Shown here piece by piece: positions 31,301-49,212 of a stretch of 64,000 nt of DNA. This stretch comes from Clostridia bacterium (lineage in GTDB: Bacteria; Bacillota; Clostridia; Oscillospirales; CAG-272): NCBI GenBank assembly GCA_017623975.1, contig JAGANX010000037.1, positions 310 through 64,309 of the forward strand. The letters are read 5' to 3'. A program made the translations under genes and the position numbers. The stretch's first letter is position 1; every line of letters starts with the position of its first letter. Below the pieces are notes generated by a model. The model was given only the letters and a program-made list of their open reading frames with translations, had not been told where the DNA came from and made no database searches.

Positions 31301-34300
31301 CTGGAACGCTGCCCAGTTGATAAGCTGAACGTTTTGAAGTCCTGTGCCGCCGATAATATTTCCGTCCTCATCCATATAGGAAATGGTTTTAAGCTTTTTA
31401 CAGCCGTAGAATGCTCCGTATTCAATAGCTTCAACCGTATATGGAATAACTACCTCTTCAAGAGCTGTTAAGCCTGCAAATGCGTAAGGTCCGATTTTTT
31501 CAATACCGATAGGCAAAACTACCTTTGTTATTGTATTCTCACCCAAGAATGCTACCTTTGTAAGGTTAGGATCCTCCTCCGAAATTTCGTCAATACCCTC
31601 TACCTTATCAATATAATCGTAGTTTGAGAATGCGTATTGGCTGATTTCAGTAAGGTTAAGGTCGGCAGGCACAATAACCTCACCGCCTAAGCCGAAGTAG
31701 TGGCTAAGACCGGGACCTGATCTTATCCATGGGTCTTTAACCTCAACGTCAACAGTTTCAGAGAAGTAAGTGTTTTTGCCTTCAAGCACTACCCTTACAG
31801 TTACAGAAGCAAAGCCCTCTGCCTTTGCGGTAACAACACCCTTTTCGTCTATTTCAACAATGTTGCTGTTGCTTGACTCGTATGTTAACCAAGCACCGTT
31901 AAGATAAGGAACAAAGTTTGTTCTAAGCTCAACAGACTCAGACGGGAACATCTTCAAATTGAAGCCGCCGCCAAAGAGCTTAACATCCCCTGTCATTCCT
32001 ATATCTCTTTCATCGTTGTTGAGATAGTAGTATGCTTTCAAGGTCTTATAACCAACAACGTCAAAGATGTCCGCAACAGGCTTATCGTACTCTCTATATT
32101 CCGGGTGGTCCTTGTCATTCACACCGAGAACAGTTATCTTAAACCTTTGGGTTTGACCGCTTGTTGGGTCCTTTGCAACAATCCAAGCATTACCTGCGCT
32201 TACTGCTACAAGCTTATCGTTTACTACCTTTACTACACCGCTGTTGCTTGACTGATACTCAATAAGCTCCTTCCAAGGATTAGTTGTGTTATCAGGATTT
32301 GTTTCAGCGTTTGGATAAAGAATTGGGTTTAACTGATATACCTGGTTGATGCTTAAATAATTTGTTTCGTTTGCTGATTCTTCAAAATAGAAGTCAACAT
32401 ATTCATCAGGTAAGCCGATTTCATATGTTGTCATATTAAGGGCATAGTCATAAGCTGTTACAACAAATGAATTTTTGTTTCTCGCCTTGTCCTTAATTGT
32501 TTGAACATAATCTGTTAATTCAAATTCAACATAGGTCGTATTATTAAATGTAGAATAAACAGGAGTGAGATAGCTTTCAAAGGATTCCATCAAGTTTTCG
32601 TATCCGTCCTTTGCAAGCTCCTCTGCTGTTGCACGTCTTACATAACCGAAGTTAAGTGCCATTGTGTAGTGGTTATCGTAAACCGCTACTCTTGCAAAAA
32701 GCCTATCCTTTTTAAGCTCCTTATCATATTCTGTAAAGAACTCACAATCTGTAATAACAGGAGCCTCGTAGTCAATTGTAATGGGGAACTCGAAGGTGTT
32801 CTTCAAGTTTGTATCTGCTCCGCCGTCACCGTAATCAAGGAAGCCCTCAATCTTAACGGAAAGCTGTGCATTATTAGGAAGGTCGTAGTCCTGTGTATCG
32901 AACTCAACCTCAATGTTTGCAGGATAGATAGAGCCGCCGTCACCGTAGGACTTACGAACATCGTAATCAACAGTCTCAAAAATAACCTCTCCTGTTGCAT
33001 CGTTTGTTATAGTAACAACTATCTTAGCAGCGTTTCTTAAAAGACCTGCCCAAACAAAGCGGAAGGAGTGAACAGTTTCATCAGAATATGAAAGTGCAAT
33101 ATAATCTCTGCTTGCGGAAATAACCTTATCCTGTGGGTTTTGTTGGAAGTAATATGAACCGAGATAGCTTACATAGTCGGAGTAAAGACCACCGATTGGG
33201 CGGGTTGGATAAGCATCCGCCATAATCTTATCGTCTTGTGAAATACCGTCATCAAGCTCGTCCTTATTTGTTTCAAAGTAATCTGTATCAAACAAAGGTG
33301 CCTTTGTCCAGTCCCCGTAGAATGCAAGGAACGGTGCGCCCAAGTCAACATCTGTACCGCTGACTGCATCAAGTGTGATAAAGCCTTCAACGTACATACC
33401 GTTTGCAAAGGACTCATCAAGATACTTCTTATCAGCATCAGACAATGTAATTTTAGCTTCTACAACGGCAACAGTGCCACCCTTTACGGTAACCTTGTCC
33501 CCGTCCTTAGTGCCGTTTGTAACCTTTACAAGCTCAAACTTAGCACCGTTTAAGAGGTAACCCTCCTCTGTAACGGTTGTGTCACCGCGAACTGTTTCAG
33601 TCTCACTAACGCCCTCTGTCATAACGGTTGCAGAAAGACTGTATGTAAGTGAAGTGTCACCGAAGTTGTTAATTGCAAATTTAATGTTGTAAACGCCTGT
33701 CTTATCCTTATCATCACCAAGCTCAATCTTGGTTTTATCCATAACAGAGCCGTCAAGCCTGTCGTATGTTTGGATATAAGCACTTGTTTTAGAAGCGCTA
33801 ACAAGGTTTGCAAGACCTGCACCCTGCTTTCTTACTGCGTAAGGCAAGCCGTTAGTGTTATACATAATGTCAGCAGTTGACATTGTCAAGCAGCTAACAA
33901 GTGCGTTTATTGTTTTTGATTTTTCTCTCTTTTGCTCAGGTGTTGTCTCAGGCATATTTTTAATGAACTCATATTCATTTTCAACATACTGACGCAAAAG
34001 TGCAGTGAAGCCCGCCATGTTAGGACAAGCCATTGATGTACCTGACAAACGGTCATAGCCGCCGCCTGTTACAGCGGACAAGATGTTACCGCCGTGAGCT
34101 GTAATTTCAGGCTTAATGCTCAAATCAGGAGCAGGACCCCATGATGAGAAGTCTGAAATAAACGGACCTGATGTTTGTGTACGGCTTATTTTAATTGTTC
34201 CCTTTTTGCTTGCAGCCAAAAGCTCACCGTCATCCTGTGAAATAGAACAGATAGGAATTGTAATTGTACCTGCGTTCATCTTAATATCACCGGATACATT

Positions 34301-35884
34301 GTTGTAAACGATGATAGCGGCAGCACCTGCGTTTTGTGCAGCCTGTGCCTTTTCTTCAAAGGTAGTCGAGCCACGGCGAACAAGAGCTATCTTGCCCTTT
34401 ACGTCCATACCAAAGTAGTCAGCAGGACGTCCCGCACCCGGAACAACAACGTATTCAAGGTCAATAGACTCAGTTGAGCTTGCAGGCAAGCGGTCCTTTA
34501 AAAGCTCCTCAAAGAAATCCTTTTCCTTGCTGGCTGCGTTTGTAGCCTCAACAAAGTAAATGATAGAGCCGTTATACAAAATATAAGGTGTCTTTTTACC
34601 GTTGATAGATGCAACAGACATAGCACCCTCGTATGTGGAAGGAGAGCCAACTGTTGATGTATCAGGGTTAGTTGTAAGACCTAAGTTACCGTTTTTGTCA
34701 GAGCCGTATGCGGAGTTGTAGCTGTTAGAAGCCGCAACTATTAAGGAAATGCCCGCATCTCTAATCTTTTGATACACATTTCCGTTTACCGCTTCCTTAT
34801 CACTCTCACGGCTGAAACCGCAAGCGGTACCCAAGGACATATTGATTACGTCAACTTCAAGAAGAACACAGTCTTCAAGAGCAGACAAAATCCAAGATGT
34901 ACGTGCGCTCTCCTCAACATCGGAGAAGGTTTTCATAGCAACGATCTGTGCCTGTGGCGCAACACCTGTAATAACATCGTCCTTACCTGCGATAACACCG
35001 GAAACGTGCGTACCGTGGTTGTTATGTAATGAGTAAACATCAGAGTCCGCATCTGCATAGTCAAAGGCGAAGGGAACCTTGTCGCTCATATAAAGGTCAT
35101 CGGCAGTAACACCGTTCATATAGAACTCTGCGCGTGTTTCCTTAGCGGCGAGCAAATCCGCAATCATTTTCTTGGTCAAGCCAAGCTTTTCCCTGTTTGC
35201 AGTGAAGTTATCATCGGAAAAGGCGGTATGCGTATAGTCAAGACCTGTGTCAAGCACGGCAACAACCATGCCCTCACCCTGATACTTGAAATCAGCACTG
35301 TTGAAAATACCTGTGCTTTCATAGAAGTTTACCTGGTTTTCAACAAGCTGAGATTCACACTTTTCATAAACCTCACCAACAATTACCGTGGAGTCCTCGC
35401 CTATCGCCTCACAGGCAGCATCAAAGTCACCCGCTTGAATCAAGATTTCAAATCCACTAAAAATTGTGTTGTAAACTGCACCCTCTGTAAACTTGATACC
35501 CTTGTCCTTTAAAGACTTAATGATGTTAGCCTTTTCAGCACTTGCCAAGGACATAACCTTAATTGCCTCTTGGGAGGATGCAAACTCCGCCATGGACATA
35601 GCCTTATCCGACTCACCGTAAGCGTCCATAATAGCGGGCATTTCCATATCAATAATTATGGAAATTGTATCGGTGTTTTTAATAGTACTCGGTAGCTTTT
35701 GAACAACGTTACCATTTAAAAACTGCTCGATATTGGTTTTCAAATCTCCGTTATACTCGCTAAGGTAACCGCCAAGTGGCACTTTACCCGAAACAGCAGA
35801 GGTACAAAGCGAGATTAACATTGTGAACAGCAACAAAAGTGATATTGCGACTGTTGCTATTCTTGCGACTTTCTTTCTTCTCAT
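28370..35884 (-). CDS. Giant (~2504 aa) cell-envelope S8 subtilase with PA domain, Big_2-like domains, ~820-aa BspA-type LRR region and C-terminal TM anchor
   Basis: Start MRRKKVARIATVAISLLLLF (ATG 35884, downstream of the promoter at 35948-35976). Triad motifs: VLDTGLD (Asp codon 35249-35251), HGTHVSG (His 35006-35008), SGTSMACP (Ser 34034-34036). PA-like GKIALVRRGSTTFEEKAQAAQNAGA lies between His and Ser. LRR units span ~29180-31650. An S/T/P linker, TM and KLKKSVK tail end the protein. Confidence 0.85.
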   Translation of the reverse strand: MRRKKVARIATVAISLLLLFTMLISLCTSAVSGKVPLGGYLSEYNGDLKTNIEQFLNGNVVQKLPSTIKNTDTISIIIDMEMPAIMDAYGESDKAMSMAEFASSQEAIKVMSLASAEKANIIKSLKDKGIKFTEGAVYNTIFSGFEILIQAGDFDAACEAIGEDSTVIVGEVYEKCESQLVENQVNFYESTGIFNSADFKYQGEGMVVAVLDTGLDYTHTAFSDDNFTANREKLGLTKKMIADLLAAKETRAEFYMNGVTADDLYMSDKVPFAFDYADADSDVYSLHNNHGTHVSGVIAGKDDVITGVAPQAQIVAMKTFSDVEESARTSWILSALEDCVLLEVDVINMSLGTACGFSRESDKEAVNGNVYQKIRDAGISLIVAASNSYNSAYGSDKNGNLGLTTNPDTSTVGSPSTYEGAMSVASINGKKTPYILYNGSIIYFVEATNAASKEKDFFEELLKDRLPASSTESIDLEYVVVPGAGRPADYFGMDVKGKIALVRRGSTTFEEKAQAAQNAGAAAIIVYNNVSGDIKMNAGTITIPICSISQDDGELLAASKKGTIKISRTQTSGPFISDFSSWGPAPDLSIKPEITAHGGNILSAVTGGGYDRLSGTSMACPNMAGFTALLRQYVENEYEFIKNMPETTPEQKREKSKTINALVSCLTMSTADIMYNTNGLPYAVRKQGAGLANLVSASKTSAYIQTYDRLDGSVMDKTKIELGDDKDKTGVYNIKFAINNFGDTSLTYSLSATVMTEGVSETETVRGDTTVTEEGYLLNGAKFELVKVTNGTKDGDKVTVKGGTVAVVEAKITLSDADKKYLDESFANGMYVEGFITLDAVSGTDVDLGAPFLAFYGDWTKAPLFDTDYFETNKDELDDGISQDDKIMADAYPTRPIGGLYSDYVSYLGSYYFQQNPQDKVISASRDYIALSYSDETVHSFRFVWAGLLRNAAKIVVTITNDATGEVIFETVDYDVRKSYGDGGSIYPANIEVEFDTQDYDLPNNAQLSVKIEGFLDYGDGGADTNLKNTFEFPITIDYEAPVITDCEFFTEYDKELKKDRLFARVAVYDNHYTMALNFGYVRRATAEELAKDGYENLMESFESYLTPVYSTFNNTTYVEFELTDYVQTIKDKARNKNSFVVTAYDYALNMTTYEIGLPDEYVDFYFEESANETNYLSINQVYQLNPILYPNAETNPDNTTNPWKELIEYQSSNSGVVKVVNDKLVAVSAGNAWIVAKDPTSGQTQRFKITVLGVNDKDHPEYREYDKPVADIFDVVGYKTLKAYYYLNNDERDIGMTGDVKLFGGGFNLKMFPSESVELRTNFVPYLNGAWLTYESSNSNIVEIDEKGVVTAKAEGFASVTVRVVLEGKNTYFSETVDVEVKDPWIRSGPGLSHYFGLGGEVIVPADLNLTEISQYAFSNYDYIDKVEGIDEISEEDPNLTKVAFLGENTITKVVLPIGIEKIGPYAFAGLTALEEVVIPYTVEAIEYGAFYGCKKLKTISYMDEDGNIIGGTGLQNVQLINWAAFQDCDLRGKLVLDNARAIGDYAFAGNKNLVEVEIPKTLRSVGGYAFFGNEDLKSVTVHAENVKYGPYVFAYCKSLNDIETVDENGNKIVSINTAVIPQGAFYFCDSLTNITIGNDVNVIGEYAFAGAGIASFTVTSENASFKADSSKYILSKDGTELVIVAPTVKGEFKLDDANVTTIGVGAFAENKNITKVVIPSATKVGKYAFAECIKLESVTLGALEEIGDYAFFVTSIASHPSFDGLDAIGKYAFAYTNVGSVVIPNNVLVGEGAFSECEKLESITIGNDVTIELGAFMYNNRLDGRWSVSSYYKNGKNYYYPDYNSPLKQLTIGNNVVIGESAFMGAADLEAVTMGENIVIGNQAFYNSCALKAILDTSGANVGFKNVKSIGELAFSGDEQYVYADANLTNPMVVNGKYVFQYYGAAFEAIDLTNVESFAKGAFAYCTQLKDVALGEQTRAIPELAFYGCTKLENINLGKVETVGSNAFAGAESLANIDLSSATTVEDYAFTLGGATSVVLNPNGTNIGEGAFAYCPKLTSVQNLGASKEIASYAFAESGITKIDLTGAEVIGDHVFKKENTQGDLTAFDVEITLGEGLKSVGDNPFAFCKLQPFAQIGAYEFNGKEYQTVTLTFDISDTVKVINGSLYCKVNTGYELITYGGADANGYVTVAEDTVRISSYAFVGTNVETVVLPHSLDAIGHKAFFNCDSLTTVIFKSYEAPILEEQLDVAYYNSYDNIPGGGKYNLPLNNGEILVKDGLGIVDYYMWNVPSGMYYDVFFGANFMNHIGHIDRKLTMVRPSNGQNYETFILGQYFGKVIDGSISATDETLAAIAAIAKIPKNIRLSHEPLVVAAREAYNKIATRDQQALVADYSALVTAENKIQRLKDEQSGSGEQDKPSTPGSGDKPITPDTPSSGSTTTPSTNDSTVGSTPTVDSMGGAAPNAQGSNVGFVVVIIVLSVLVVCGTAFAVIYIVKLKKSVK

Positions 35885-36339: not shown

Positions 36340-36372
36340 TAGAATGGAATATTTTTAGAAAGGTAGTTATAT

Positions 36373-37275
36373 ATGTCGAAGGAAAGCTTGAAAAAGATTT
36401 ATTTGATATATGGCATAGTGCTTAGCGTGCTTTTGGCAGTTTTGTCTGTCTTGCTTGTGGTTATGTGTATTGACATTTACAAAAACGAGCCTGATTTGTT
36501 CACCCGTCAAAGCGTTTCAGAGCATTTTGCAAAAATTGCAGTTTTCGTCTATCTTACAATTGCAGTTATAATCGGTGGCGGTATTCTTTCAATCGTTTGC
36601 CCACTTGAAAAAGATAAATTGAAGGGCAGCGTAAAGGACGGCGTTGTTTTAAGACGACTTTCAAAAAAGCTTACCGTTATTAGTGATGAGGCGAGTGCTA
36701 AAATAGAAAAGCAACGCATTATCCGTTTTGCTATGATTATTGTCAGCATGGTTTTGGTAATCGGTGCTACTGTAAGCTCATTTATTCAAGTTCTCACCTC
36801 TTATGATGTTAATGCTGCTATAAACAAGGCGGTTATAAACGGTTGGCTAACTGTAACCTGGCATTTCTTAGCTCCCACCGCTTACCTAATAGTTACCGCT
36901 TACGTTTGTAAAAGAAGCATTAAGAAGGAGCTTGAAGTTGTTAAAGGCGAGCTTAAAAATGCAAAAACAGCGGGGGATGTGTCTAAAAAAGAAGATATCA
37001 CAGCTTCTTGTCAAGCAGATACAGTGGATGACAGATGTCAAGAGCAAGATGAAAAAAATCTTGGTCCCGTTACCAAATTAACAAACGAGCTTGGCGAAAC
37101 AGTTGAGCGAATTAAAACACCTAAAAAATGGCACAAAATCGCTTATTATTCAGTTTTCGGCATCCTTGCCTGCACCGCCGTTACCTTTATCATAGTAGGT
37201 TTAGCAAACAACGGTGCCTCTGAGGTTGTAAGAAAAGCAATTGCAATTTGTAAAGAATGTATAGGAATGGGGTAA
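36373..37275 (+). CDS. 5-TM membrane protein ending in a C-terminal CxxC (AICKECIGMG); function unknown
   Basis: 300 aa: four N-terminal TM helices, a ~75-aa charged loop with two Cys, a fifth TM, then the tail ...RKAIAICKECIGMG. Its stop is 3 nt before the next ATG. Confidence 0.65.
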   Translation: MSKESLKKIYLIYGIVLSVLLAVLSVLLVVMCIDIYKNEPDLFTRQSVSEHFAKIAVFVYLTIAVIIGGGILSIVCPLEKDKLKGSVKDGVVLRRLSKKLTVISDEASAKIEKQRIIRFAMIIVSMVLVIGATVSSFIQVLTSYDVNAAINKAVINGWLTVTWHFLAPTAYLIVTAYVCKRSIKKELEVVKGELKNAKTAGDVSKKEDITASCQADTVDDRCQEQDEKNLGPVTKLTNELGETVERIKTPKKWHKIAYYSVFGILACTAVTFIIVGLANNGASEVVRKAIAICKECIGMG

Positions 37276-37278
37276 ATT

Positions 37279-39384
37279 ATGAACAAAGTACTAAAAAAAT
37301 TAAAAAGCCTTATTCCCTCTAAGCGTAAGCTTATTCAGCTTTATTCGGCACTTTTATTTAATGCTAACATCAAGGGCTTCTTCACAGGCGATATATATAG
37401 AGGCTCTACTAAAAAAATGTGTGCCCCGGGCATTAACTGTTATTCTTGCCCGGGTGCTATTGGTGCATGTCCCCTTGGCTCACTTCAAAACGCCCTTGGC
37501 ACAAGCTCCCACGGTACGATTTTTTATGTAATCGGTATTTTACTTCTATACGCATTACTTTTAGGCAGATTTATTTGCGGCTTTTTGTGTCCCTTCGGGC
37601 TTATACAAGAGCTGCTTTACAAAATCAAAACTCCTAAGCTTAAAAAGAACAAGGTTACAAGAATTTTATCTTACTTAAAATATGTAATTCTCGTTTACTT
37701 TGTTGTCATCATCCCTGTTCTTTATTTACTGTACTCAAACAATTCCGTTCCCGTTCCCGGCTTTTGCAAATACATATGTCCGGCAGGAATTTTGGAGGGT
37801 GCCTTTGGCTACCTATCCCACCCAAGCAACGCGCAGGATATGGCGGCACTTCGCTCCTTATTTACTTGGAAATTCTGTTTAACTGTTTCCATTATCTTAG
37901 GCTCCGTGTTCATTTTCAGGCTATTCTGCCGTTTTCTTTGCCCACTTGGCGCGCTTTACGGTCTTTTCAACCACTTCTCTGTTTTCGGCATCAAGCTTGA
38001 AAAAAGCAAGTGCATAGATTGCGGTCTTTGTGTAAGCAAATGTAAGGTAGATATACGCCACGTTAATGACCACGAATGTATAAACTGCGGAGAATGTATT
38101 GAGGTTTGCCCAACGCAAGCAATTTCTTGGAAGGGCTCAAAGCTTATTTTGCCACCAAATGAAATTGAAAACCCAATCCCTGTGACTGATGATAGCCCTG
38201 AGGATATTAAGCAATTGGCAGAGGAGCAAAAGCAAGAGTTTTTAGCAAGGAACGAAAAAATCAAAAAGCGCAACAAGATACTAAAAATAGTTGTATCCTC
38301 CCTTATGCTGGCGCTTTTAGCCTTTGCTTTAATTTACTATAACTTTATTGATGTACCAAAAACCAATGACAATGAAAACGATAATAACAACACTCAAAAC
38401 GAAACTCCGCTACCGCCTGACGAGGGTAATGATGTCGGTAACATTGTACAAAAGCAGGAGCTTTTGATATTCAACGGTGACGGTGTTAGCGAAGCTGTTA
38501 TTGACCCAACAAGCTACAAGGGTAAGATTGTAATCGTTTCCTTCTGGAATTACGATAGCAACAATTCTTCCTTAGAGGCTCTTGACAAAATTGCAACAGA
38601 ATATAAAGAAAAAGCGGTTGTAATTGCTATACATACAAGTGATAATTTTGACGGTGCTTGTGATTATATTAAGGCAAATTACCAAAATTCTTCCGTTATT
38701 TTTGCAAAGGACTATGCAAAGGATGAAAAGGAAAACATCTGCTTTGCCGCTTACGGTGGTGAAAATGGCAAGCCTTTAACCCTTCTGCTCAACGAAGCAA
38801 GCGTAATCGTTTCTTCCGAAAAAGCAATTATAGGCTATGATGCGCTTAAAGCTGCGGTTAAAAAAGAAATAAGGAACGGTGATGCAAGCAACCCACCTGT
38901 TGTTGGCAACCAGGTTGGTAACCTTTGCCCATCTTACCCAATGGATATCTTTGATGAAAACGGCTTTACAGGTGAAAAAATTGACCCTGTGAAAACCGGA
39001 AAATTAACAATTATCAACTTCTGGGGTACTTGGTGCGGCGGTTGTGTTGCTGAGCTTCCTTACTTTGACAGAATTGCCGGCGAATATAAGGACAAAATTA
39101 ATGTTATTGCCGTACACACTCACTCATTGTTCGATACTGCCGCAGGCTATGTAGAGCAATATTACAAGGACTCCTCTATCATCTTCACAAAGGACAATCC
39201 CATTGACCCTGATGATGAATATTCCGCTGAGGTCTTTTTCAAGAAATTAGGCGGTGGCGATGCTTATCCTATCACTATAATTCTTGATGAAAACGGTGTT
39301 ATTATTAAAACAATTTTCAGTGCTTTAACTTACGAAGACCTTAAAAATGTAGTTGATACTGAGCTTAACAAATACCAAGATTAA
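37279..39384 (+). CDS. NapH-like polyferredoxin membrane protein fused to an extra TM and two TlpA/redoxin-like thioredoxin-fold domains
   Basis: 701 aa. Membrane Cys motifs: CYSCPGAIGACPLG, CGFLCPFG, CKYICPAG, CRFLCPLG. Two ferredoxin motifs: CIDCGLCVSKC and CINCGECIEVCP (38011-38111). Next come the TM ILKIVVSSLMLALLAFALIYY and an N/D-rich linker. Trx-like domain 1 has a degenerate motif FWNYDS (38542-38559). Domain 2 has an intact WCGGC (Cys-Gly-Gly-Cys codons 39034-39045). Confidence 0.8.
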   Translation: MNKVLKKLKSLIPSKRKLIQLYSALLFNANIKGFFTGDIYRGSTKKMCAPGINCYSCPGAIGACPLGSLQNALGTSSHGTIFYVIGILLLYALLLGRFICGFLCPFGLIQELLYKIKTPKLKKNKVTRILSYLKYVILVYFVVIIPVLYLLYSNNSVPVPGFCKYICPAGILEGAFGYLSHPSNAQDMAALRSLFTWKFCLTVSIILGSVFIFRLFCRFLCPLGALYGLFNHFSVFGIKLEKSKCIDCGLCVSKCKVDIRHVNDHECINCGECIEVCPTQAISWKGSKLILPPNEIENPIPVTDDSPEDIKQLAEEQKQEFLARNEKIKKRNKILKIVVSSLMLALLAFALIYYNFIDVPKTNDNENDNNNTQNETPLPPDEGNDVGNIVQKQELLIFNGDGVSEAVIDPTSYKGKIVIVSFWNYDSNNSSLEALDKIATEYKEKAVVIAIHTSDNFDGACDYIKANYQNSSVIFAKDYAKDEKENICFAAYGGENGKPLTLLLNEASVIVSSEKAIIGYDALKAAVKKEIRNGDASNPPVVGNQVGNLCPSYPMDIFDENGFTGEKIDPVKTGKLTIINFWGTWCGGCVAELPYFDRIAGEYKDKINVIAVHTHSLFDTAAGYVEQYYKDSSIIFTKDNPIDPDDEYSAEVFFKKLGGGDAYPITIILDENGVIIKTIFSALTYEDLKNVVDTELNKYQD

Positions 39385-39387
39385 AAT

Positions 39388-39416
39388 AAAAATCTCCGTG
39401 TCAAACGGAGATTTTT
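39388..39416. terminator. Intrinsic terminator (A-run/hairpin/T-run) after the polyferredoxin gene
   Basis: aaaaatctccgt-gtcaa-acggagattttt. Confidence 0.8.
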
Positions 39417-39424
39417 AATTCATT

Positions 39425-39458
39425 AAAATAGAGGCTTTTTTCAAAGCCTCTATTTTTT
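39425..39458. terminator. Second back-to-back intrinsic terminator serving the convergent lipoprotein operon
   Basis: aaaatagaggcttt-tttc-aaagcctctatttttt lies 5 nt from the minus-strand stop at 39463. Confidence 0.8.
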
Positions 39459-39462
39459 AATT

Positions 39463-42306
39463 TTATTCAACTGTTACAGTAAACTCGTACTCGCCTGCAT
39501 TTTCTGCGGAAATTGCAAAGTAAATCCAGTTGCCCATTGTGTCCTCAATTGTAAGTGTATTGTTTTCTACATCTACAAGAGTTGAGCCAGCCATTGACCT
39601 TTCAACCAAGCAAAGATTAGCCTCGCCATTTAATGTAATTGTCAGCTTGCAGCCCTCGTTTGCGGAGAATACATAGTATGTGATTCCGTTTACATCTGCG
39701 GTATATGTACCGCTTTCTGTCACTTCAATAGCATTTTCCTCGGTTGTGCCCTGTGCAAGCTCCTCTGATGTATATTCAAGCAAGATGCTTTCGTTAGCAC
39801 CGTTCTGTGTGGAAACAGCTATTGTATAGAACATATTATTTGTTTCAAATGTATATGTAGCCTTGTCGCCAGCTACTGTCGACATACCTATTGGAGTGTC
39901 GTTTTCGTCAATAATTCCGTCCTCATTTGTGTCAGCATTATAAACCTTAATTACTGCGTTTGCGCTATTTGCGGAAATTGTAAATTTAACGCTTTGACTT
40001 GGACGAACATAAAGTGTGTACCAAACTGTACCGTTTTCCTTAACCTCTGCGGTTTCCTTCATCTCATCTACTGTATCAAAATCAAATGGAGCATCAGCCG
40101 CGCCTGTCTTAATACGGGTAAGTGAGTATGAGCCGTAGTTAGACATTTCAAGAGCAATTTCTTCAAAGTTGGAGGTATATCCCTCGGGATATTCAACCTT
40201 AACTACATAATTATCCGCAAACACAACGTCTGCAAATACTACGCGTCCGTTCTCTCCTGTTGTGCCTCTTACTACCTCTGTTAATTCATCACCGTTTTGC
40301 TTGTACAGTATAACAACAATATTGCTTGCTACATCACCGTCTTTGTTTACATAAATTGTGTAATCAACTTTTTCTTCGCCAAAATTAAATTTTACGGAAG
40401 TAGCAAAGTCAGCACCTACATCAAATCCATTTACGGCAATCAAAACCGTTTCTCCCTTTGAAAGTGGGAACAAGTGCTTGCCATCATCTGTAACAAGACC
40501 TACTCCGTCGCCGTCAAAGTGAACATCAACGCTTGCATCGGTTGTTACGCAAAGAGTGCCGTCTTCCTTTGCTGTGTATGAATAGTAAATTGTTGTATCC
40601 TTTTCAATTGTAGCTTCCTCTGTGTATCCGTCAGCACCCACCTTATCAGTTACATCAAACGGGTTATTGTGTGTACCCGGAGCTTTCATTGAAACGTCAA
40701 CGCTTTGGGCTTCGTCTGCTGTGATAGAGAAAATTGATATTTGTCCTTTTGCCTCGGAAAGATTAAATGTACCGTTAACTATTTGTGAAAGATCATCGTT
40801 ATAATCAAGCTTAACGCCTGTTGAAACAATGCTAACAACCTTTCTGTGTCCGTTAGGAACAGCAAACCAAACTGTTTGACCCGCTTCAAGGTTCAACTGT
40901 ACCTCACCGAGCAATATGATAGGAGATTCCTTGCTTGCACCCGGAATCTTGTTTGTTATCTTGATTTTACCAACAGCTGAGTCATTATAAACGAAGTATG
41001 CAGGCTCTATATAAACGTTATCAGCCCTTAAAACTGCTGTATAGTATCCGTTTGGTGCTACAAAGGTAGCAATACCGTTTTCACCTGTTACAATAGTTTC
41101 AATGATCTCATCATCTACATTATAAACATCAATTACATAGCCGGCAAGCTCAGTTGACACACTAACGGTATATGTAATTTCGGAGTGAGTAACAACCGTT
41201 ACCTCAATCGTCGTAGAGTCGCTTGTGAAATGGAATTTACCGTCATCACCCGCACCAATTACCTCATATGCAGGGCTTACGATAATTACTTCAACGCTGT
41301 AATCGCCTTCACCTAAATTTTCAAAGGTAGCAATGCCGTTTTCGTTTGTTTTAACAACATCTTCAAGGAAGCCGTCAGCATAAAGCTTAACCTGTGCGCC
41401 AACAACAGCATCACCAAACATTGTGGCAACCCTTACAGAATATGTTGCCTTCTTTTTAGCAATAATTGTGCAGCCGTACTCGCCGCTTTCAAATGTTGCT
41501 TGTGCTTGGCTTAAATCATACGCACCACCGCTTAAAACCTCAGTAACCCTTGCACTCAATTCGCCGCCGTGCAATGTGATAACGCCTGTTACCATACCGT
41601 CCGGGTCGGTTATAAGTGAGTCAGCATAAGTATTCTCACCCATTTGGAGCTGAATTTTAGCACCGTCAACCGCTTGTTCTTTATCGTCAAATACATTAAT
41701 TACAACCCTTTGAACGTAAATTACAAGCTCACGTGAGCCTTCGTCAAAATATACATATTCGCTTGAAGCAATAAAATCATCAACGCCTGTGATGGAGTTA
41801 ATCTTTGCCTTCAATTGACCCTCTTTGAGGTCATAAGTTCTTGTACCAACTCCGTCTGCGCCTGTTTTGATAGGCTGAAAGAAGCAGGTTTCGCCTTGAC
41901 AAATTTGAATAGCTGCGCCGTTTACACCCTTGCCTGTTTCACGGTTAATAACCGTAACCTTTACAAGATTTGGGTCATCCTGTGGCTTTTGGTCATCAGG
42001 TGGAGTTACAGTTGAGCTTCCTGCACCTGAATTATCTGTGCTTGGAGTCGTTGTAGAGCTGTTTGTACCCGGGGTGTCTGTACCGGAATTGCTTGTAGAA
42101 TTGTCTGTGCTTGAATTATCTGTATTGCCGGGGTTTTGGCTTGGTGTAGTAGAGTTGCCTGTTGAACCGCTGTTATCAGTTGAACTGCTTGCTCCGCTTT
42201 GTGAGGAGCCTGCGCCACCGTCACCGTTACAGCTACATGATGCAAATACTGCAAGCATGCCAAGCAAAAGCATTAAAGTAGCCATAAGTATAGCAATTTT
42301 CTTCAT
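39463..42306 (-). CDS. 947-aa tethered lipoprotein with four prealbumin/CarboxypepD_reg-like repeats and several PPC-like beta-sandwich modules; function unknown
   Basis: Lipobox FASC and an ~80-aa S/T/N/G low-complexity tether. Repeats resemble VKVTVINRETGKGVNGAAIQI... and YSVRVATMFGDAVVGAQVKLY...NENGIATFENLGEGDYSVEV. Later modules start with N-P-F / A-P-F-D motifs. Confidence 0.7.
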   Translation of the reverse strand: MKKIAILMATLMLLLGMLAVFASCSCNGDGGAGSSQSGASSSTDNSGSTGNSTTPSQNPGNTDNSSTDNSTSNSGTDTPGTNSSTTTPSTDNSGAGSSTVTPPDDQKPQDDPNLVKVTVINRETGKGVNGAAIQICQGETCFFQPIKTGADGVGTRTYDLKEGQLKAKINSITGVDDFIASSEYVYFDEGSRELVIYVQRVVINVFDDKEQAVDGAKIQLQMGENTYADSLITDPDGMVTGVITLHGGELSARVTEVLSGGAYDLSQAQATFESGEYGCTIIAKKKATYSVRVATMFGDAVVGAQVKLYADGFLEDVVKTNENGIATFENLGEGDYSVEVIIVSPAYEVIGAGDDGKFHFTSDSTTIEVTVVTHSEITYTVSVSTELAGYVIDVYNVDDEIIETIVTGENGIATFVAPNGYYTAVLRADNVYIEPAYFVYNDSAVGKIKITNKIPGASKESPIILLGEVQLNLEAGQTVWFAVPNGHRKVVSIVSTGVKLDYNDDLSQIVNGTFNLSEAKGQISIFSITADEAQSVDVSMKAPGTHNNPFDVTDKVGADGYTEEATIEKDTTIYYSYTAKEDGTLCVTTDASVDVHFDGDGVGLVTDDGKHLFPLSKGETVLIAVNGFDVGADFATSVKFNFGEEKVDYTIYVNKDGDVASNIVVILYKQNGDELTEVVRGTTGENGRVVFADVVFADNYVVKVEYPEGYTSNFEEIALEMSNYGSYSLTRIKTGAADAPFDFDTVDEMKETAEVKENGTVWYTLYVRPSQSVKFTISANSANAVIKVYNADTNEDGIIDENDTPIGMSTVAGDKATYTFETNNMFYTIAVSTQNGANESILLEYTSEELAQGTTEENAIEVTESGTYTADVNGITYYVFSANEGCKLTITLNGEANLCLVERSMAGSTLVDVENNTLTIEDTMGNWIYFAISAENAGEYEFTVTVE

Positions 42307-42376
42307 TTCTTATACCTCCTAAGGATTCTTACAAGTGTAATTACACTATCTTAAATTGTCACCGTATTTTGTCACT

Positions 42377-44143
42377 TTAACCGATATATACAACAAAGTT
42401 AAAGTAGATAGCTGTTTGTGCATCTTCGCCCATATATATAATCTCGAAGTTTTGGTTAGCATTAACAACAACGCTAAGTGTACCCATGCCACTTTCAGCT
42501 ACATATTCTATACCGTCATTTGCTATGATTTTTATATTCTCTGCGTTTTTAATAGTGATAGTTGCTTTTGTTGTAGTTCTAAACAAAACGCTTACGTCCT
42601 TTTCAAGCAACGCTGCGTATGTTTTTATGCTTTCACTGCCGTCCGCAGTTAAGGGAGCAGGCTTATTTTGTGTGCCTAATGCTTTTCGATTTTCATATGC
42701 ACAGGCAAAAAGCCATGCGTTTTCTTCAACAACGCTTGCTGCTTCATCTCCAAATATATGAAACTCACTATTCAAGTCGAACCAGCCGTTATGCTCACCA
42801 ATATTCTTTATTGCCTGTGCAAGCTGCTTATTTAACGGATACATTCCATTTGTACCGCATAGCTCTGCGTACTGATAAAGCATATCATTATAGCTTTCTT
42901 TTGCAATAACAGCTCCGCTTTCATCATAGAAAACCTTACCCAGTCTGCCTGTTTCACACATAGCAATAAATGACGGCAAATACTTATAAATCGTTTCCGT
43001 GCTTGTGGAGCTTTCAACAACCGCGCTGGAAATTCTTATGTAAATTATAGGTCCGTCAACAGTATTCAAATGATAATATCCATCATTTTCATTATATACA
43101 ACTGTTAAGCCTTTGTCAGTAACATCGAAATCAACAAATTCGCTGTTAACGTAGCTATCAACCTTTATAGCATTTTTGTCAGCTTGAACATCTGTCCAAG
43201 GCATATTTACCGTGGCATTACCGATTCTTTCAATTTTAAGAACACATCCTGACTCTGTAAAGGAACGAATGCCTATAACAATTTGTGTTGTACCACCCGG
43301 ATTACCGATATTAACGCCCTCGTTTTTAACTTCAAGCTCAAAGGCGCCATCCTTCACTTCAATAGGGCAGGATGCCAAAACATTGTGCGGTGAACCGTAG
43401 TAGCCAAGCGTTACAGCCCTTTTCGCCTCATAGCTAACCCTATAAATACCGCCACGTGTAGGGGTAAATAAGAAATATGAGTTTGCGGGGCGGTCGATTG
43501 TTACATAGGTTGCGCCCTCCTCTACTTGTACTGCATTATATGGGACATGGGTAATACCGTCAGTATCATAAACATAAATTTCTTCTTTGTTGGTTTCATC
43601 TGCATAGCTGCAAAGAGACACTGTTGCCTCAGGCTCCTCAGCTGTTAAAATGCAGGCACTTTTATCATAGTGGAGCTGACCCTCCATTGGCATAACCTCA
43701 AAGGTGTATTCACCTGCTTCAAGCTTAAAAGAAGCATTACCGCGTATCATAGGCACTTGGCTAACTTCTTCTCCATCAGCATTAAACACGCTAACGATAA
43801 CTGTAAAATCAGGCTCGTTACCAAACGCATCAACTGCTTTTACCTTATATGTTATCACTTTTGGTGTTTCTTGTGGTTTATCATCGTTTGTGCCATCATT
43901 TTTGCTATCATCTGTACTGCTTGGCAAGGAGCTCTCTGTATTCGAATCCCCCGTACCAATACTACCGCCAACACTTGAATTATCGCCGCCTTGTGAGCCC
44001 GATGTATCCGTTTGCGCGCCATCGCCTGCTACACTTGATTGAGAGGATTGTGTTGAGCCATCCTCTCCGCCGCAAGATGCAAAGACTAAGATAACGCTAA
44101 AAATCAAGCACAAAAGCGTTAATATAGTAAAAATCTTCTTCAT
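42377..44143 (-). CDS. 588-aa tethered lipoprotein sharing a cryptic DGYYH...YP(L/V) module with the 1137-aa neighbour; function unknown
   Basis: I prefer the start MKKIFTIL (ATG 44143, GGAG RBS 6 nt upstream). Lipobox FASC, an S/T/D tether, one prealbumin-like repeat, then NENDGYYHLNTVDGPIIYI ... MYPLNKQLAQAIKNIGEHNGW. Confidence 0.7.
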   Translation of the reverse strand: MKKIFTILTLLCLIFSVILVFASCGGEDGSTQSSQSSVAGDGAQTDTSGSQGGDNSSVGGSIGTGDSNTESSLPSSTDDSKNDGTNDDKPQETPKVITYKVKAVDAFGNEPDFTVIVSVFNADGEEVSQVPMIRGNASFKLEAGEYTFEVMPMEGQLHYDKSACILTAEEPEATVSLCSYADETNKEEIYVYDTDGITHVPYNAVQVEEGATYVTIDRPANSYFLFTPTRGGIYRVSYEAKRAVTLGYYGSPHNVLASCPIEVKDGAFELEVKNEGVNIGNPGGTTQIVIGIRSFTESGCVLKIERIGNATVNMPWTDVQADKNAIKVDSYVNSEFVDFDVTDKGLTVVYNENDGYYHLNTVDGPIIYIRISSAVVESSTSTETIYKYLPSFIAMCETGRLGKVFYDESGAVIAKESYNDMLYQYAELCGTNGMYPLNKQLAQAIKNIGEHNGWFDLNSEFHIFGDEAASVVEENAWLFACAYENRKALGTQNKPAPLTADGSESIKTYAALLEKDVSVLFRTTTKATITIKNAENIKIIANDGIEYVAESGMGTLSVVVNANQNFEIIYMGEDAQTAIYFNFVVYIG

Positions 44144-44162
44144 ATAATTCTCCATTTACATA

Positions 44163-44191
44163 ACTCCCGCCAAGGAAGGCACGGCGGGAGT
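44163..44191 (-). other. Intercistronic GC-rich stem-loop without U-run
   Basis: actcccgcc (44163-44171) and ggcgggagt (44183-44191) form a 9-bp stem with an 11-nt loop, between the 1137-aa stop and the 588-aa start. Confidence 0.5.
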
Positions 44192-44200
44192 CAAGCTAAG

Positions 44201-47200
44201 TTACTGTTGAGCCTTATCTACCTCAATAAGTCTATATACTTCCGCTGTAACTATATCTACCAAGGATCTTTCAACTGCAACAATTGTCCAGTGGTCAAGC
44301 GCTTCATAAAGCTCTTGAACCAATGCATCAATCTCGCCCGCAATGTCCTCGCTTGCAACATCAGCACTGTCAAGCAATGCATTAAGGTCTGCAAGCTTTT
44401 CATCAACACTCTTCGGTGCAGTCAGTGGTCTATAATAATAGCAAAGCTTTGTCCAAGAATCTTTTACGCCTTCAAATGTGAATTTATCCATCAATGCTTG
44501 AAGCATTACTCCAAGCTCCTTATCAACAGGAACACAGCCCTGGCGTTCAGGATAAATAACCTCTGTGCTTGTTCCGTCTGTACCGTCATCAAGCTTGTCA
44601 AGATATTTTCTCATAGCTTCGGTGTAATCAGGGCCATTACCGTGGTAAATACCCTTTATAATATCTTCCATTTTGTACAATTCCCAGTTTGCATCAAAAT
44701 TGTCGCCCCAAAGCTCTCTTAAAGCTGCCTTACCGCCCTCTTCATAGTAATTTTTGAAATATACGTATGCTTCCCTATCCGTCTCTGTCATACGCATATC
44801 AAATGCGCCTTCTTCAATAAGCGTTTCAAGAGATTGTTTGCCGAAAATATTAGTTGTAAAGTGGAAATCTGCATACACTATTGAACCCAGCTCACCATTT
44901 GGCAAGAGGTGACAATAGTAGCCGTATCTTGGGTCATCTTCATCCTCGCAAAGCTTAACGTCAATGCCCGTTGCAATAATTTCTTGGCTAATTTCATCGT
45001 AAGAGAATACACCCGGTGATGCTTCTTCAAACACATCAAAGGTTTCGCCTACATATTTAAGGTCAAATGTAAATGTACCTGCTGCATAAACGTCATAGTA
45101 CGCAATATCAATGTAGTATTCAACGCCTTCTTCAAAGTAGCCTATCATTGTACAGTTTGTAAGGTCTCTTTCATAAACACCATTGCCGTCCGGGTCAACA
45201 AGAAGCTCAGGACAGTATCTCTCACCTGTGAAGGAATCAAGATAAAGAACTCTGTCGCCGCCGTTTTCATTTACCCACTGCTCAAAGCTACCTATGAACA
45301 CCCATCCGTTCACCTCTTGTGTAGCGTTAGATGTAATACGGTAAACGCCTGATTTTGTAGGAACGAACTTGTAAAGGAAGCCTCTTGGCATAATGATTTG
45401 TGTATATGTTACTGTGTTTTTAAAGCCCTCCTCGCCCTCTAATGTTTCAACAGCATCAAATGCGGAGAATGTTGTAAGACCGCGAATTGGGTCCTCTAAC
45501 TGAGAGGCTGTACCGTATGCCTCATAGTAAGAGCAAAGCTGGAGCCAAGTATTTTCATCATAACCAAATGCTGCTTTCTGCTTAGCAAATTCATCAAGAT
45601 AGCCTTTAAGCTCCTCTGTTACAGGACAATATCCATAGAGCTTAGAGTTAGACGCATAATTACAGTACATAATGAATGAATTGTAAACGTCCTTACCGTT
45701 GTAAATAAACTCGCCTTGGTCAACCAAAACGGTTGTAACGGTAAATCTTTCTTCCTCAGGGAAGAGCAAGGAAAGCTGTGTGTTGGAGCCTAAAAGACTT
45801 GCCAAAAGAAGCGGACCGTCCTTTGTGCCAACGTGGTAGTAGCCATCCTCTTCATTAAACACAACGTCAACGTAGGTTTCAAAGAAGATATCGTCATACT
45901 TGTCAGTTGCTGCATATCTTGGAATATAAGTTTCAATTTCCAATTCCTTTGCATCAACTACCTTAAAGTTGTCAAGATAAACTCTATCGTCGCCATCCAT
46001 ATCGCTTTCATCCTTGATGTAGCAGAAGGCAACCTCATAGGTTCCGTCCTGTGTTGCTACCCATGGGCAACAGGTTTGCCATGGCTCTTGCAGCAAATTA
46101 CCGTCATCGTCCTCCATTGGTCTTCCGGAAATTGTGTAAATATCCTTACCGTCAACCAAAACATAGAGAACGTCATAAAGTCTTTGCGTTGAAGCATAAT
46201 AGTCAAACACAATAGCCTCACCGGCTTTAAGCTCTACATCAACGTAAAGAATGCAGTAAGAGTTGTCTAAATCTACGTTTGTAGATGCCAAGCACTTTTC
46301 TCCATCCTTTTCGTAAACAATAAACGGCCATGCGTATTCAGCATCCTCACCATCGGTTTCAGGTCTGAATGTTATGTTAATATCACCGTTTACAACAGCA
46401 TCCTTAATTTCATTTTCAGGGGACATTTCAATGTCCGGCTTTACCATAGGAGAAAGATCGTAGATTGATGAGTAAAGCTCCTGCTCATAGTTACTTGATA
46501 CATAGTGCTCGAATGCGTTAAAGAAATATCTTTCACCTAAAACGCCGCCCACCTGTATCATAGAAATAACGCCATAACGGTCAATCATTACAGAGCATGG
46601 GTTTACTGTAAAGCCAAATGCTTCTTGAATACCGCTTACATCCTTAACCATTGGGAAGGTTAATGCACAACCGTCCTCTGTATAATAGCCCGGCTTTGCA
46701 AATTCTTCCATAAAATCTCTTATGTTCTTGTCATTATCGGCACCGTATGCGTTAATACCGATAATTTCAATATCGTCACCGTATTTTTCATAAGCTGCTT
46801 GAATGTATGGGAATTCCTCAATACAGTAAGTACAGGTTGTGTACCAGAAGTTAAGCATAACAGCCTTTTTGCCGTTTGCTAAAAGGTCGGAGAGCTTAAC
46901 CTGCTTTGTTTCAATCATACCTGTGTCCTTGTTGTAAACGTATGCAGTAAGCTCAAAGTCATACATTACATCCCCAAGTCCAAGTTGAAGCCCTGAAAAA
47001 TCATTGTCCTCATTGGGAACAATTTCCGTTTTAACCTTGATTTCAACGCCTGTTGTACCAAGCTCATAGAAATCATCATGAACGTAACCGGCAGGGAAAT
47101 TCTCTACATAAACGTATTTAGCATCCTCAGGATACGCTTTCAAAACGACAGAACCGTTTTCCGCTGTTTTACCCCAAGCGGCTGTGCCTGAGCCAAGCTC

Positions 47201-47614
47201 CGCTTCGCTTTGGATAAATACACTTACATTTGGAATAGGCTTGCCTGTATTTTCATCAATGATGAGAATGGTGTATTCTGATTTGTTTGGCTTCGTGCCT
47301 GTACCGTCCCCACTATCAGATGGCTTGGAGCTTGATGTGGAGTTGTTTGTTGAGCCACTGTCAGGTGTGCTTGGTACAGTACAGCTACTGTCACTTGAAG
47401 CACCACTATTGTCAGAGCTGCCTGTTGATGGAGTGGTATCGGTTGAGCCACCGCTATTATCCACAGAGCCGGAGCCGCCAACAGAGCTATCAGGATTAGA
47501 CTGGGAAGAATTATCGGAATTACCCGTTCCTGAGCCGCAAGCGGACAACATCAGCATTACTGCTGTTACTACTAATGCAAGTAAGATTAGTAGCCTTTTG
47601 TTCGTCTTTTTCAT
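44201..47614 (-). CDS. 1137-aa tethered lipoprotein with an embedded TlpA-like CxxC thioredoxin domain and two copies of the DGYYH-type module
   Basis: Lipobox LSAC, an S/T/G/D tether and a prealbumin-like repeat. The Trx-like stretch is KAVMLNFWYTTCTYCIEEFPYIQAAYEKYGDDIEIIGINA (CTYC codons 46823-46834). Later: NEEDGYYHVGTKDGPLLL...CPVTEELKGYL and RYGYYCHLLPNGELG...VPVDKELGVMLQAL. Confidence 0.75.
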   Translation of the reverse strand: MKKTNKRLLILLALVVTAVMLMLSACGSGTGNSDNSSQSNPDSSVGGSGSVDNSGGSTDTTPSTGSSDNSGASSDSSCTVPSTPDSGSTNNSTSSSKPSDSGDGTGTKPNKSEYTILIIDENTGKPIPNVSVFIQSEAELGSGTAAWGKTAENGSVVLKAYPEDAKYVYVENFPAGYVHDDFYELGTTGVEIKVKTEIVPNEDNDFSGLQLGLGDVMYDFELTAYVYNKDTGMIETKQVKLSDLLANGKKAVMLNFWYTTCTYCIEEFPYIQAAYEKYGDDIEIIGINAYGADNDKNIRDFMEEFAKPGYYTEDGCALTFPMVKDVSGIQEAFGFTVNPCSVMIDRYGVISMIQVGGVLGERYFFNAFEHYVSSNYEQELYSSIYDLSPMVKPDIEMSPENEIKDAVVNGDINITFRPETDGEDAEYAWPFIVYEKDGEKCLASTNVDLDNSYCILYVDVELKAGEAIVFDYYASTQRLYDVLYVLVDGKDIYTISGRPMEDDDGNLLQEPWQTCCPWVATQDGTYEVAFCYIKDESDMDGDDRVYLDNFKVVDAKELEIETYIPRYAATDKYDDIFFETYVDVVFNEEDGYYHVGTKDGPLLLASLLGSNTQLSLLFPEEERFTVTTVLVDQGEFIYNGKDVYNSFIMYCNYASNSKLYGYCPVTEELKGYLDEFAKQKAAFGYDENTWLQLCSYYEAYGTASQLEDPIRGLTTFSAFDAVETLEGEEGFKNTVTYTQIIMPRGFLYKFVPTKSGVYRITSNATQEVNGWVFIGSFEQWVNENGGDRVLYLDSFTGERYCPELLVDPDGNGVYERDLTNCTMIGYFEEGVEYYIDIAYYDVYAAGTFTFDLKYVGETFDVFEEASPGVFSYDEISQEIIATGIDVKLCEDEDDPRYGYYCHLLPNGELGSIVYADFHFTTNIFGKQSLETLIEEGAFDMRMTETDREAYVYFKNYYEEGGKAALRELWGDNFDANWELYKMEDIIKGIYHGNGPDYTEAMRKYLDKLDDGTDGTSTEVIYPERQGCVPVDKELGVMLQALMDKFTFEGVKDSWTKLCYYYRPLTAPKSVDEKLADLNALLDSADVASEDIAGEIDALVQELYEALDHWTIVAVERSLVDIVTAEVYRLIEVDKAQQ

Positions 47615-47772
47615 ATCTTTTCACCTCATATAAAATACTATATATAAAAACGTCGTTAAATATAATAGCATACAATTGCAAAAAAATCAACAAAAAATTT
47701 TAGTTTGCTAAAAGAGTAACACACTGTTTACATTTAGTTTATAAATAATAAGTCGCCTTGCCTTACAACAAA

Positions 47773-49005: not shown

Positions 49006-49149
49006 TTTTCTTACTCCTTTTTAATCAAAACGCATCAGAGATAGCGTTGGATTTCTTAATTACATTATACATTTTTTTCGTTTGCTTGTCAACTATGTTC
49101 ATTTTGTTCAATATTGTCAATTTTTTTACTCAAAATGATGCTTTATTTA

Positions 49150-49178: not shown

Positions 49179-49212
49179 ATATGTAACTATATCTATGTAT
49201 AGGAGGATATTT

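Follow-up and report, generated by a model that had tools for sequence, protein, structure and literature searches.

Tethered lipoproteins of gut Clostridia join a ResA/TlpA-class thioredoxin domain to an undescribed module and may act in thiol reduction beside a giant S8 proteinase

We analyzed a 64,000-nucleotide stretch (the window) from the metagenome-assembled genome (MAG) of a Clostridia bacterium, which is 54% complete (assembly GCA_017623975.1, contig JAGANX010000037.1, positions 310 to 64,309), with the focus on three consecutive genes for tethered lipoproteins that we call P1, P2, and P3 (Table 1). The analysis revealed that P1 carries a genuine thioredoxin domain of the ResA/TlpA class, that P1 and P2 share a module, DGYYH, which represents a previously undescribed domain family, and that the P1-P2 pair has two conserved partners which the initial annotation of this DNA had not seen: a Fer4-thioredoxin gene pair, encoding a NapH-like polyferredoxin fused to thioredoxin domains and its CxxC-tailed companion, and a giant S8 proteinase with PA and LRR regions. 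We propose, with somewhat less than even confidence and from sequence-based evidence, that P1 and P2 constitute the cell-surface branch of an extracytoplasmic system for thiol reduction within a proteolytic feeding locus, with the S8 proteinase as the likeliest client.

Searches with P1 returned only two Pfam families, AhpC-TSA (PF00578, 47.8 bits; cut-off 26) and Redoxin (PF08534, 37 bits; cut-off 26.6), both within residues 214 to 357, and the best sequence matches in the PDB were the pneumococcal Etrx lipoproteins (4hqz, E 1.8e-7) and ResA. When the AlphaFold model of P1 (mean predicted local distance difference test, pLDDT, 82.5) was compared with known structures by Foldseek, ResA structures matched the thioredoxin domain with target-normalized template modeling (TM) scores (TMt) of 0.75 to 0.82. 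Alignment of 36 P1 homologues showed that C261, C264, E267, F268, P269, and P339 are invariant; in the wider set of 120 homologues the CxxC motif is kept in 118, the other two being truncated sequences, and the longer pattern C-x-[Y/W/F/P]-C-x-x-E-F-P is likewise found in 118, with xxEFP following CxxC in 118/118. The motif reads CTYC in 63 cases and CSWC in 22, other aromatic forms also occur, and a Pro is present in the dipeptide in 7 of 118. Because the Pfam and fold matches coincide with an invariant CxxC-x-x-E-F-P, we regard the domain as a genuine oxidoreductase of the ResA/TlpA class whose aromatic dipeptide is unusual, and P339 is inferred to be the cis-Pro of the thioredoxin fold. P1 lies outside the equivalogs that gave its best NCBIfam matches: ResA (54 bits; cut-off 170), StoA (32.6 bits; cut-off 210), TlpA (26.7 bits; cut-off 230), and DsbE (23.4 bits; cut-off 123). 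It is predicted to be extracytoplasmic, since it has a signal peptide with the lipobox LSAC and an invariant C26. We considered whether P1 could be a peroxiredoxin and rejected this: the site NFWYTTCTYC is a thioredoxin-type CxxC, no Pro stands four residues before T-x-x-C, and the best structures are those of ResA. The NFWYTTCTYCIEEFPY region of P1 is 33% identical over 42 residues (E 2e-7) to the NFWGTWCGGCVAELPY region of the polyferredoxin protein. Both the TlpA-like CxxC domain and this resemblance had been proposed in the initial annotation, and both points held; a lack of conservation of the motif in orthologues, which the annotation had named beforehand as a refutation, was not observed. 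The thioredoxin domain together with the jelly-roll that follows it gave as top Foldseek match the DipZ C-terminal ectodomain (5cyy, E 4.6e-10, 402 columns). The jelly-roll also contains a vicinal cysteine pair, C515-C516 (46067-46072), in the motif W-x-x-C-C-P-W, kept in 32/36 and 29/36 homologues, respectively.

The DGYYH module is about 150 residues long and, as had been proposed, is present twice in P1 and once in P2: residues 584 to 705 of P1 aligned with residues 348 to 494 of P2 (BLASTP E 9e-8), and the second P1 copy (868 to 1066) was recognized by the profile of the first type (hhalign probability 97.6%, E 2.8e-12). Its signature consists of D-G-[YF]-Y-H, G-P, Y-N, G-x-C-P-[LV], and W-L-x-x-C-x-Y in that order, and each P1 copy contains a conserved cysteine pair, namely C663 (32/36) with C694 (36/36) in the first and C1027 (36/36) with C1058 (34/36) in the second. 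No Pfam or NCBIfam family covered the module or the jelly-roll when we scanned the window proteins together with sets of 37, 36, and 49 family members; the module profile matched nothing below E 0.3 among PDB sequences, and Foldseek of the P1 and P2 models gave no match to the module. Whole-chain Foldseek searches, with the P1 model in the PDB and with the P2 model (mean pLDDT 85.2) in the PDB and BFVD, yielded only generic multi-beta-sandwich or thioredoxin matches, with TM ≤0.15 outside the thioredoxin domain. The earlier statement that most of this sequence can be assigned to no characterized family therefore stands, since a placement of the modules in such a family, the other refutation named beforehand, did not emerge from Pfam, NCBIfam, PDB profiles, or Foldseek. 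A search of 1.84 billion cluster representatives with the module profile retrieved at least 1,293 proteins at E ≤1e-3, 824 of them at ≤1e-10, and we consider DGYYH an undescribed family.

Module proteins were of three kinds, P2-type (about 420 to 530 residues), P1-type (about 950 residues with two or three stretches of the module), and longer chains, several of which combine an N-terminal redoxin, Ig domains, and a C-terminal X-DGYYH unit on one polypeptide ('X' being a PPC-like beta-sandwich; Table 1). Of the 49 module proteins longer than 600 residues, 23 contained a redoxin domain, which was the only functional domain fused to the module; the other recognizable domains were Ig-like, plus a dockerin in two. 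These two dockerins, found among proteins P0258-P0395 (alignment A5), are of type I and suggest attachment to cellulosome-like scaffolds in some species. The Asp, His, and Cys residues of DGYYH were also considered as a catalytic triad, for which we found no support, the Cys lying within a hydrophobic terminal strand (W-L-F-x-C-x-Y). Cysteine co-occurrence analysis of the P2 family resolved no clear disulfide pairs. A third tethered lipoprotein of the same genome, a 605-residue protein on contig C66 (L098 2590-4407, plus strand) with Ig and PPC-like domains, has a divergent DGYYH-type module (GFYHKYD ... DDQWLFACGYYE); on one side its neighbor encodes a membrane protein rich in vWA domains and on the other a lipoprotein that has Cys/His-rich repeats and exceeds 1190 residues, and no redoxin gene is adjacent.

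More than 1,136 P1 homologues were found in 90% clusters, the named ones annotated as 'redoxin domain-containing protein' or 'TlpA family protein disulfide reductase' of uncultured Clostridia, and P1 is present in at least 385 species-level genomes, all of them gut MAGs labeled Eubacteriales, Oscillospiraceae, or Clostridia. We surveyed the neighborhood of P1 in 80 loci from different species with a reach of 10 kb. P2 lay directly downstream of P1 in 75/80 loci, which makes P1-then-P2 the conserved core. The S8-PA-LRR proteinase gene was found in 52/80 loci, in one of two arrangements: it was divergent from P1 and immediately upstream of it, or it lay past the Fer4-thioredoxin pair. The Fer4-thioredoxin gene with its CxxC-tailed partner was found in about 40/80. 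Genes for glycosyltransferase family 2 and glycoside hydrolase-like proteins were present in 13/80.

The association was examined at the level of genomes in a sample of 150 genomes of the same family and in a 399-genome sample of the class. The module is patchy, being found in 12/150 genomes of the family, in 0/2 of the same genus, and in 5/398 others of the class sample. In the family sample, all 12 module-positive genomes had the thioredoxin-fused polyferredoxin and none of the 138 module-negative ones did, and this held when the genes were on separate contigs or 18 kb apart; in 9/138 module-negative genomes there is only a NapH-like protein of about 310 residues that lacks thioredoxin. Close orthologues of the S8 proteinase (at least 59% identity) followed the same pattern, with 10/12 module-positive and 0/138 module-negative genomes, and among the genomes of the class sample only the five module-positive ones had S8 genes of at least 42% identity. 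More distant giant S8 genes (43-47% identity) are present without the P1/P2 system; those in module-negative genomes keep their Opp-type neighbors, but homologues of P1, P2, and Fer4-thioredoxin are missing from their surroundings. The whole cassette looks like a patchily inherited accessory island, because the same-genus genomes G431 and G520, each 97% complete, lack the module, the Fer4-thioredoxin fusion, and the S8 orthologue. The source genome also encodes, on contig C61 (L097 1453-3246, minus strand), a 597-residue lipoprotein with an S/N/G tether, a long helical region resembling a foldase, and, at its C-terminus, a TlpA-like thioredoxin domain (WGTWCGPC), 47% identical to the polyferredoxin thioredoxin domain.

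The S8 proteinase itself showed a feature that tracks the system. Two of its cysteines, C339 and C355, are kept in every S8 gene that lies next to P1/P2 (Table 1). Both were present in 54/56 S8 genes of module-positive genomes and in 0/17 of module-negative genomes, where the states were A-C, S-C, C-S, C-A, or neither Cys, four lineages each having replaced a different one of the pair. In a FastTree phylogeny of S8, the CC state fell into two separate clades, both module-positive. This pattern suggests that the pairing of C339 with C355 may be tolerated, or useful, only with the redox system. Other cysteines of the proteinase were less strictly kept: C620 (34025-34027), three residues past the catalytic Ser (G-T-S-M-A-C-P), in 28/49, and C546 (34247-34249), in the PA-domain region, in 45/49.

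We infer from these data a path for the electrons, reduction as its direction, and a client. P1 and P2 would be lipid-anchored and held off the membrane by their disordered tethers. Electrons would pass from the cytoplasm to the NapH-like polyferredoxin membrane protein and on to its own outward thioredoxin domain, from there to the CxxC of P1, and finally to a disulfide of a client at the cell surface. A beta-sandwich precedes every DGYYH module; the modules might dock or recognize the client, and the conserved cysteine pair of each P1 copy may join in the thiol exchange, while P3 would serve as an optional Ig/beta-sandwich stalk protein. The giant S8-PA-LRR proteinase would be the most likely client, because it is co-inherited with the system and its catalytic domain combines C339 with C355 in no genome that lacks the system; its thiols would be kept reduced and the enzyme active. 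A bolder form of this hypothesis, which we regard as rather unlikely, is that DGYYH is a new thiol-redox client adaptor, possibly redox-active through its cysteine pair, which together with the P1 thioredoxin domain and the Fer4-thioredoxin reductase makes up an energy-coupled switch gating a giant surface serine proteinase in gut anaerobes.

Several observations weigh against the proposal that P1 and P2 serve the proteinase. The direction of the redox reaction is not certain, because the P1 dipeptide is T-Y or S-W, unlike the x-P of ResA and TlpA. The association of the cysteine pair with the system is a correlation over few independent lineages, and genes inherited together on a linked island can look functionally coupled without being so. 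The module-positive genomes G373 and G222 have a C-A proteinase, and the P1 matches are divergent there. We take C339 and C355 to correspond to positions ~114 and ~130 of subtilisin BPN', the latter just past the substrate-binding strand 125-127; at such a separation the two cysteines probably could not bond, and we set aside a regulatory C339-C355 disulfide for this reason. There is also a subgroup of P1-P2 pairs (for example, locus L055) that lie among unrelated genes with neither S8 nor Fer4-thioredoxin within 10 kb, and orphan P2-like genes exist.

The main rival gives P1 and P2 a role in unfolding substrates: with their DGYYH and beta-sandwich modules they would capture dietary or host proteins that contain disulfides and would reduce these at the cell surface, after which S8 would cleave the proteins and the downstream Opp system would import the peptides. 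The synteny and co-occurrence data fit this idea equally, giant S8 genes elsewhere are flanked by Opp-like genes, and both the several putative binding domains and the long tethers of P1 and P2 would suit it, as would the dockerins on two module proteins, which are also found in extracellular degradative complexes. It leaves unexplained, however, why the cysteine pair of the proteinase tracks the system, and many relatives have giant S8-Opp loci that work without P1/P2. Pfam and PDB profiles, moreover, recognized no ligand-binding family in the modules. We judge substrate unfolding rather unlikely.

Three other roles are less well supported. In an oxidative-damage defense like that of Etrx, P1 would pass electrons to a repair enzyme at the surface, or would itself attack peroxides, and so protect the surface proteins of a strict anaerobe; the Etrx2 structure (4hqz) and related pneumococcal lipoproteins are indeed the best PDB sequence matches and the fold agrees, the best Pfam match is AhpC-TSA, and a desulfoferrodoxin gene lies near one related locus. 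This role is improbable, as neither Msr (PF01625) nor CcdA/DsbD (PF02683) was found in the 54%-complete genome or in the conserved neighborhood, the CxxC site has no peroxidatic motif, and about 800 extra residues as well as the link to S8 would be left unexplained. A touch more improbable is a mainly structural or adhesive function, in which polymers from the host or its diet are the ligands of the Ig, PPC-like, and DGYYH domains, with a minor, accessory part for thioredoxin. Most of the mass does consist of beta-sandwich domains of the adhesin kind, the jelly-roll is similar to DipZ's carbohydrate-binding-like domain, P3 is built of SpaA/prealbumin repeats, and the DGYYH-type lipoprotein of contig C66 adjoins no redoxin gene. 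An accessory role is hard to reconcile, though, with a CxxC and surrounding motif that are essentially invariant, with the strict co-occurrence of the module and the Fer4-thioredoxin fusion, and with the recurrence of redoxin as fusion partner. Finally, a classical ResA/CcmG/StoA role in reducing apocytochrome c or spore-cortex proteins is scarcely credible: ResA and StoA are the best NCBIfam matches, but their scores are far under the family cut-offs, and neither the architecture nor the neighborhood has any relation to loci for sporulation or the maturation of cytochrome c.

The layout of the locus agrees in most respects with what had first been described. Open reading frame (ORF) analysis confirmed three consecutive minus-strand genes of 1137, 588, and 947 codons separated by gaps of 57 and 70 nucleotides. 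Each product begins with a lipobox cysteine that is invariant in its family (P1 C26, 36/36; P2 C24, 37/37; P3 C24, 17/17), followed by an S/T/G/N/D-rich tether of about 70-85 residues, which is predicted to be disordered in the P1 and P2 models (pLDDT <50 at residues 20-108 and 21-91, respectively). P1, P2, and P3 likely form one operon, since the genes are co-directional, the site scan found no terminator-like sites in the P1-P2 and P2-P3 gaps, bidirectional terminator-like hairpins lie past P3, and a promoter-like site, followed by a GAGGTGA ribosome-binding site, precedes P1. An Rfam scan of positions 36000-49400 gave nothing meaningful.

Table 1. Features of the P1-P2-P3 locus and its neighbors (nucleotide positions in the window; residues numbered in each protein)
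Feature	Nucleotides	Residues	Strand	Basis or remark
P1, 1137-residue lipoprotein	44201..47614		-	ORF, Pfam Redoxin/AhpC-TSA, AlphaFold, Foldseek, family alignment
P1 signal peptide and lipobox C26 (LSAC), disordered tether		N-terminal part; tether 27-108	-	sequence, AlphaFold
P1 Ig/prealbumin-like domain		110-198	-	AlphaFold; Pfam SpaA reached in 20/36 homologues only, not in P1 itself
P1 thioredoxin domain, ResA/TlpA class	46490..46987	210-375	-	alignment, Pfam, Foldseek
P1 active-site C261-T-Y-C264 (NFWYTTCTYCIEEFPY)	46823-46834	261-264	-	invariant Cys
P1 E267	46814-46816	267	-	invariant, 36 sequences
P1 P339	46598-46600	339	-	invariant, 36 sequences
P1 jelly-roll beta-sandwich	45941..46462	385-558	-	AlphaFold strand pattern, Foldseek
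P1 DGYYH copy 1	45497..45937	560-706	-	D590-G-Y-Y-H594, C663, C694; DGYYH invariant in alignment
P1 PPC-like beta-sandwich 'X' (FVPTKSGVYRITS)	45017..45472	715-866	-	BLASTP, hhalign vs P2
P1 DGYYH copy 2, long helical insert	44417..45013	868-1066	-	C1027, C1058; hhalign
P1 C-terminal three-helix tail		1068-1137	-	AlphaFold; confined to close relatives
P2, 588-residue lipoprotein	42377..44143		-	from MKK start; longest ORF 592 residues
P2 lipobox C24, tether, Ig-like domain, PPC-like 'X'		24; 25-92; 94-182; 184-312	-	AlphaFold
P2 DGYYH module	42674-43171	325-490	-	BLASTP vs P1
P2 C-terminal beta-sandwich		492-588	-	AlphaFold
P3, 947-residue lipoprotein	39463..42306		-	lineage-specific third gene
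Promoter-like site 5' of P1	47662..47690		-	TTGATT, 17 nucleotides, TATTAT, with TG; consensus match only
Terminator-like hairpins, bidirectional	39387..39456		.	between P3 stop and convergent Fer4-thioredoxin gene
CxxC-tailed membrane protein (300 residues) and NapH-like polyferredoxin fused to outward thioredoxin domains (701 residues)	36373..39384		+	Pfam, NCBIfam; convergent to P1-P3
S8-PA-LRR cell-envelope proteinase	28370..35884		-	triad D212, H293, S617; numbering from MRRKK start, checked
S8 C339 (LEDCV)	34868-34870	339	-	kept in 49/49 S8 genes next to P1/P2
S8 C355 (GTACGFS)	34820-34822	355	-	kept in 49/49 S8 genes next to P1/P2

P2 had no Pfam or NCBIfam family in scans of the window proteins, and its 132 homologues, all from uncultured Clostridia, are unnamed or 'hypothetical'. 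The Ig-like domain of P2 gave Big_1 or CarboxypepD_reg matches in 6-7 of 37 homologues. The 'X' domain of P1 resembled residues 198-244 of P2 (BLASTP E 2e-4; hhalign probability 52%, E 1.4e-4, a moderate match), and the comparison of 'X' with P3 was weak (hhalign probability 13%). The PPC family itself (PF04151) had no match in the window proteins and matched one of 36 P1 homologues at E 0.002; on the question of what 'X' and the C-terminal domain are, the ColG collagen-binding domains (5iku) matched the P2 model with a Foldseek probability of 1.0 and a low TM score. Five P2 homologues (P0066, P0070, P0076, P0118, and P0119) contain long Cys-rich repeat inserts (alignment A1, columns ~100-800) with the patterns D-E-N-G-D-x-x-C-D-x-C and G-H-x-E ... 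C-T-E-D-G ... C-S-V-C, which resemble small modules, metal-binding or knotted, arranged in series.

P3 matched Pfam SpaA (PF17802, 59.7 bits; cut-off 23.1) over three stretches and CarboxypepD_reg (PF13620) at 38.4 bits, and consists of a tether, prealbumin/SpaA-type Ig repeats, and then about four more beta-sandwich repeats. Thus, of the prealbumin-like repeats first ascribed to all three proteins, those of P3 were confirmed, while P1 and P2 have one Ig/prealbumin-like domain each. The claim that all three share cryptic modules also held in part: DGYYH is common to P1 and P2 but not found in P3, where only residues 542-643 resemble the C-terminal sandwich of P2 (hhalign probability 79%, E 1.6e-5, a moderate match). 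P3 has only 17 homologues and is present in 14/80 loci; in three more distant loci examined, the third position was occupied by a protein of 157-298 residues, Ig-like in 2/3. P3 is a lineage-specific Ig/beta-sandwich protein outside the conserved core.

To our knowledge, both the extracellular thiol handling of strict gut anaerobes and the protein digestion of uncultured Clostridia are poorly known, and a literature search on this architecture or on a thioredoxin-proteinase link found no relevant paper. The cassette offers an unannotated domain family of at least 1,293 clusters and a testable client hypothesis, namely a proteinase cysteine pair seen only alongside the system, and P1 would be the downstream acceptor for a CcdA-independent Fe-S/thioredoxin electron exporter. 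If the link to S8 is real, this would be the first dedicated extracytoplasmic thioredoxin relay serving a cell-envelope proteinase, and a function could be given to hundreds of 'redoxin domain-containing' proteins in ruminant and other gut metagenomes.

Among known systems, the surface thioredoxin lipoproteins Etrx1 and Etrx2 of Streptococcus pneumoniae (PDB 4hqz, 4hqs, 2yp6) are single-domain proteins of about 185 residues that receive electrons from CcdA and serve MsrAB2 (PMC3914529). P1 shares with them the lipid anchor, the outward-facing TlpA-like thioredoxin domain (TMt ~0.7), and the proposed place as last carrier of exported electrons; it differs in its length of 1137 residues, about 800 of them in extra domains, and in having a polyferredoxin-thioredoxin protein and a proteinase as neighbors. 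DipZ of Mycobacterium tuberculosis (Rv2874; 5cyy, 2hyx) has, like P1, a thioredoxin domain followed by a carbohydrate-binding-like jelly-roll, with an overall TM of only 0.37, which points to a different relative orientation of the two domains; DipZ, however, is fused to a CcdA/DsbD-type membrane domain where P1 has only a lipoprotein signal peptide, and the DGYYH module is missing from DipZ. With Bacillus subtilis ResA and StoA and Bradyrhizobium TlpA, P1 has in common the fold, the CxxC-x-x-E-(F)-P motif, and an acidic residue at the position of ResA Glu80, whereas their dipeptide is x-P and that of the P1 family T-Y or S-W, and their clients (cytochrome c, spore cortex, and CuA) are not indicated for P1. 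In the lactococcal PrtM-PrtP system, a maturation lipoprotein is encoded beside a cell-envelope S8 proteinase, PrtM being a PrsA-type peptidyl-prolyl isomerase. The P1 gene likewise lies beside an S8-PA proteinase gene, often divergently, an analogy that suggests a dedicated proteinase helper; the chemistry proposed for P1/P2 is instead thiol-disulfide exchange, and the Pfam and NCBIfam scans found no rotamase (parvulin-type isomerase) family in P1 or P2. By analogy, then, P1/P2 would work most like the Etrx proteins and the DipZ ectodomain, with the addition of a new domain family.

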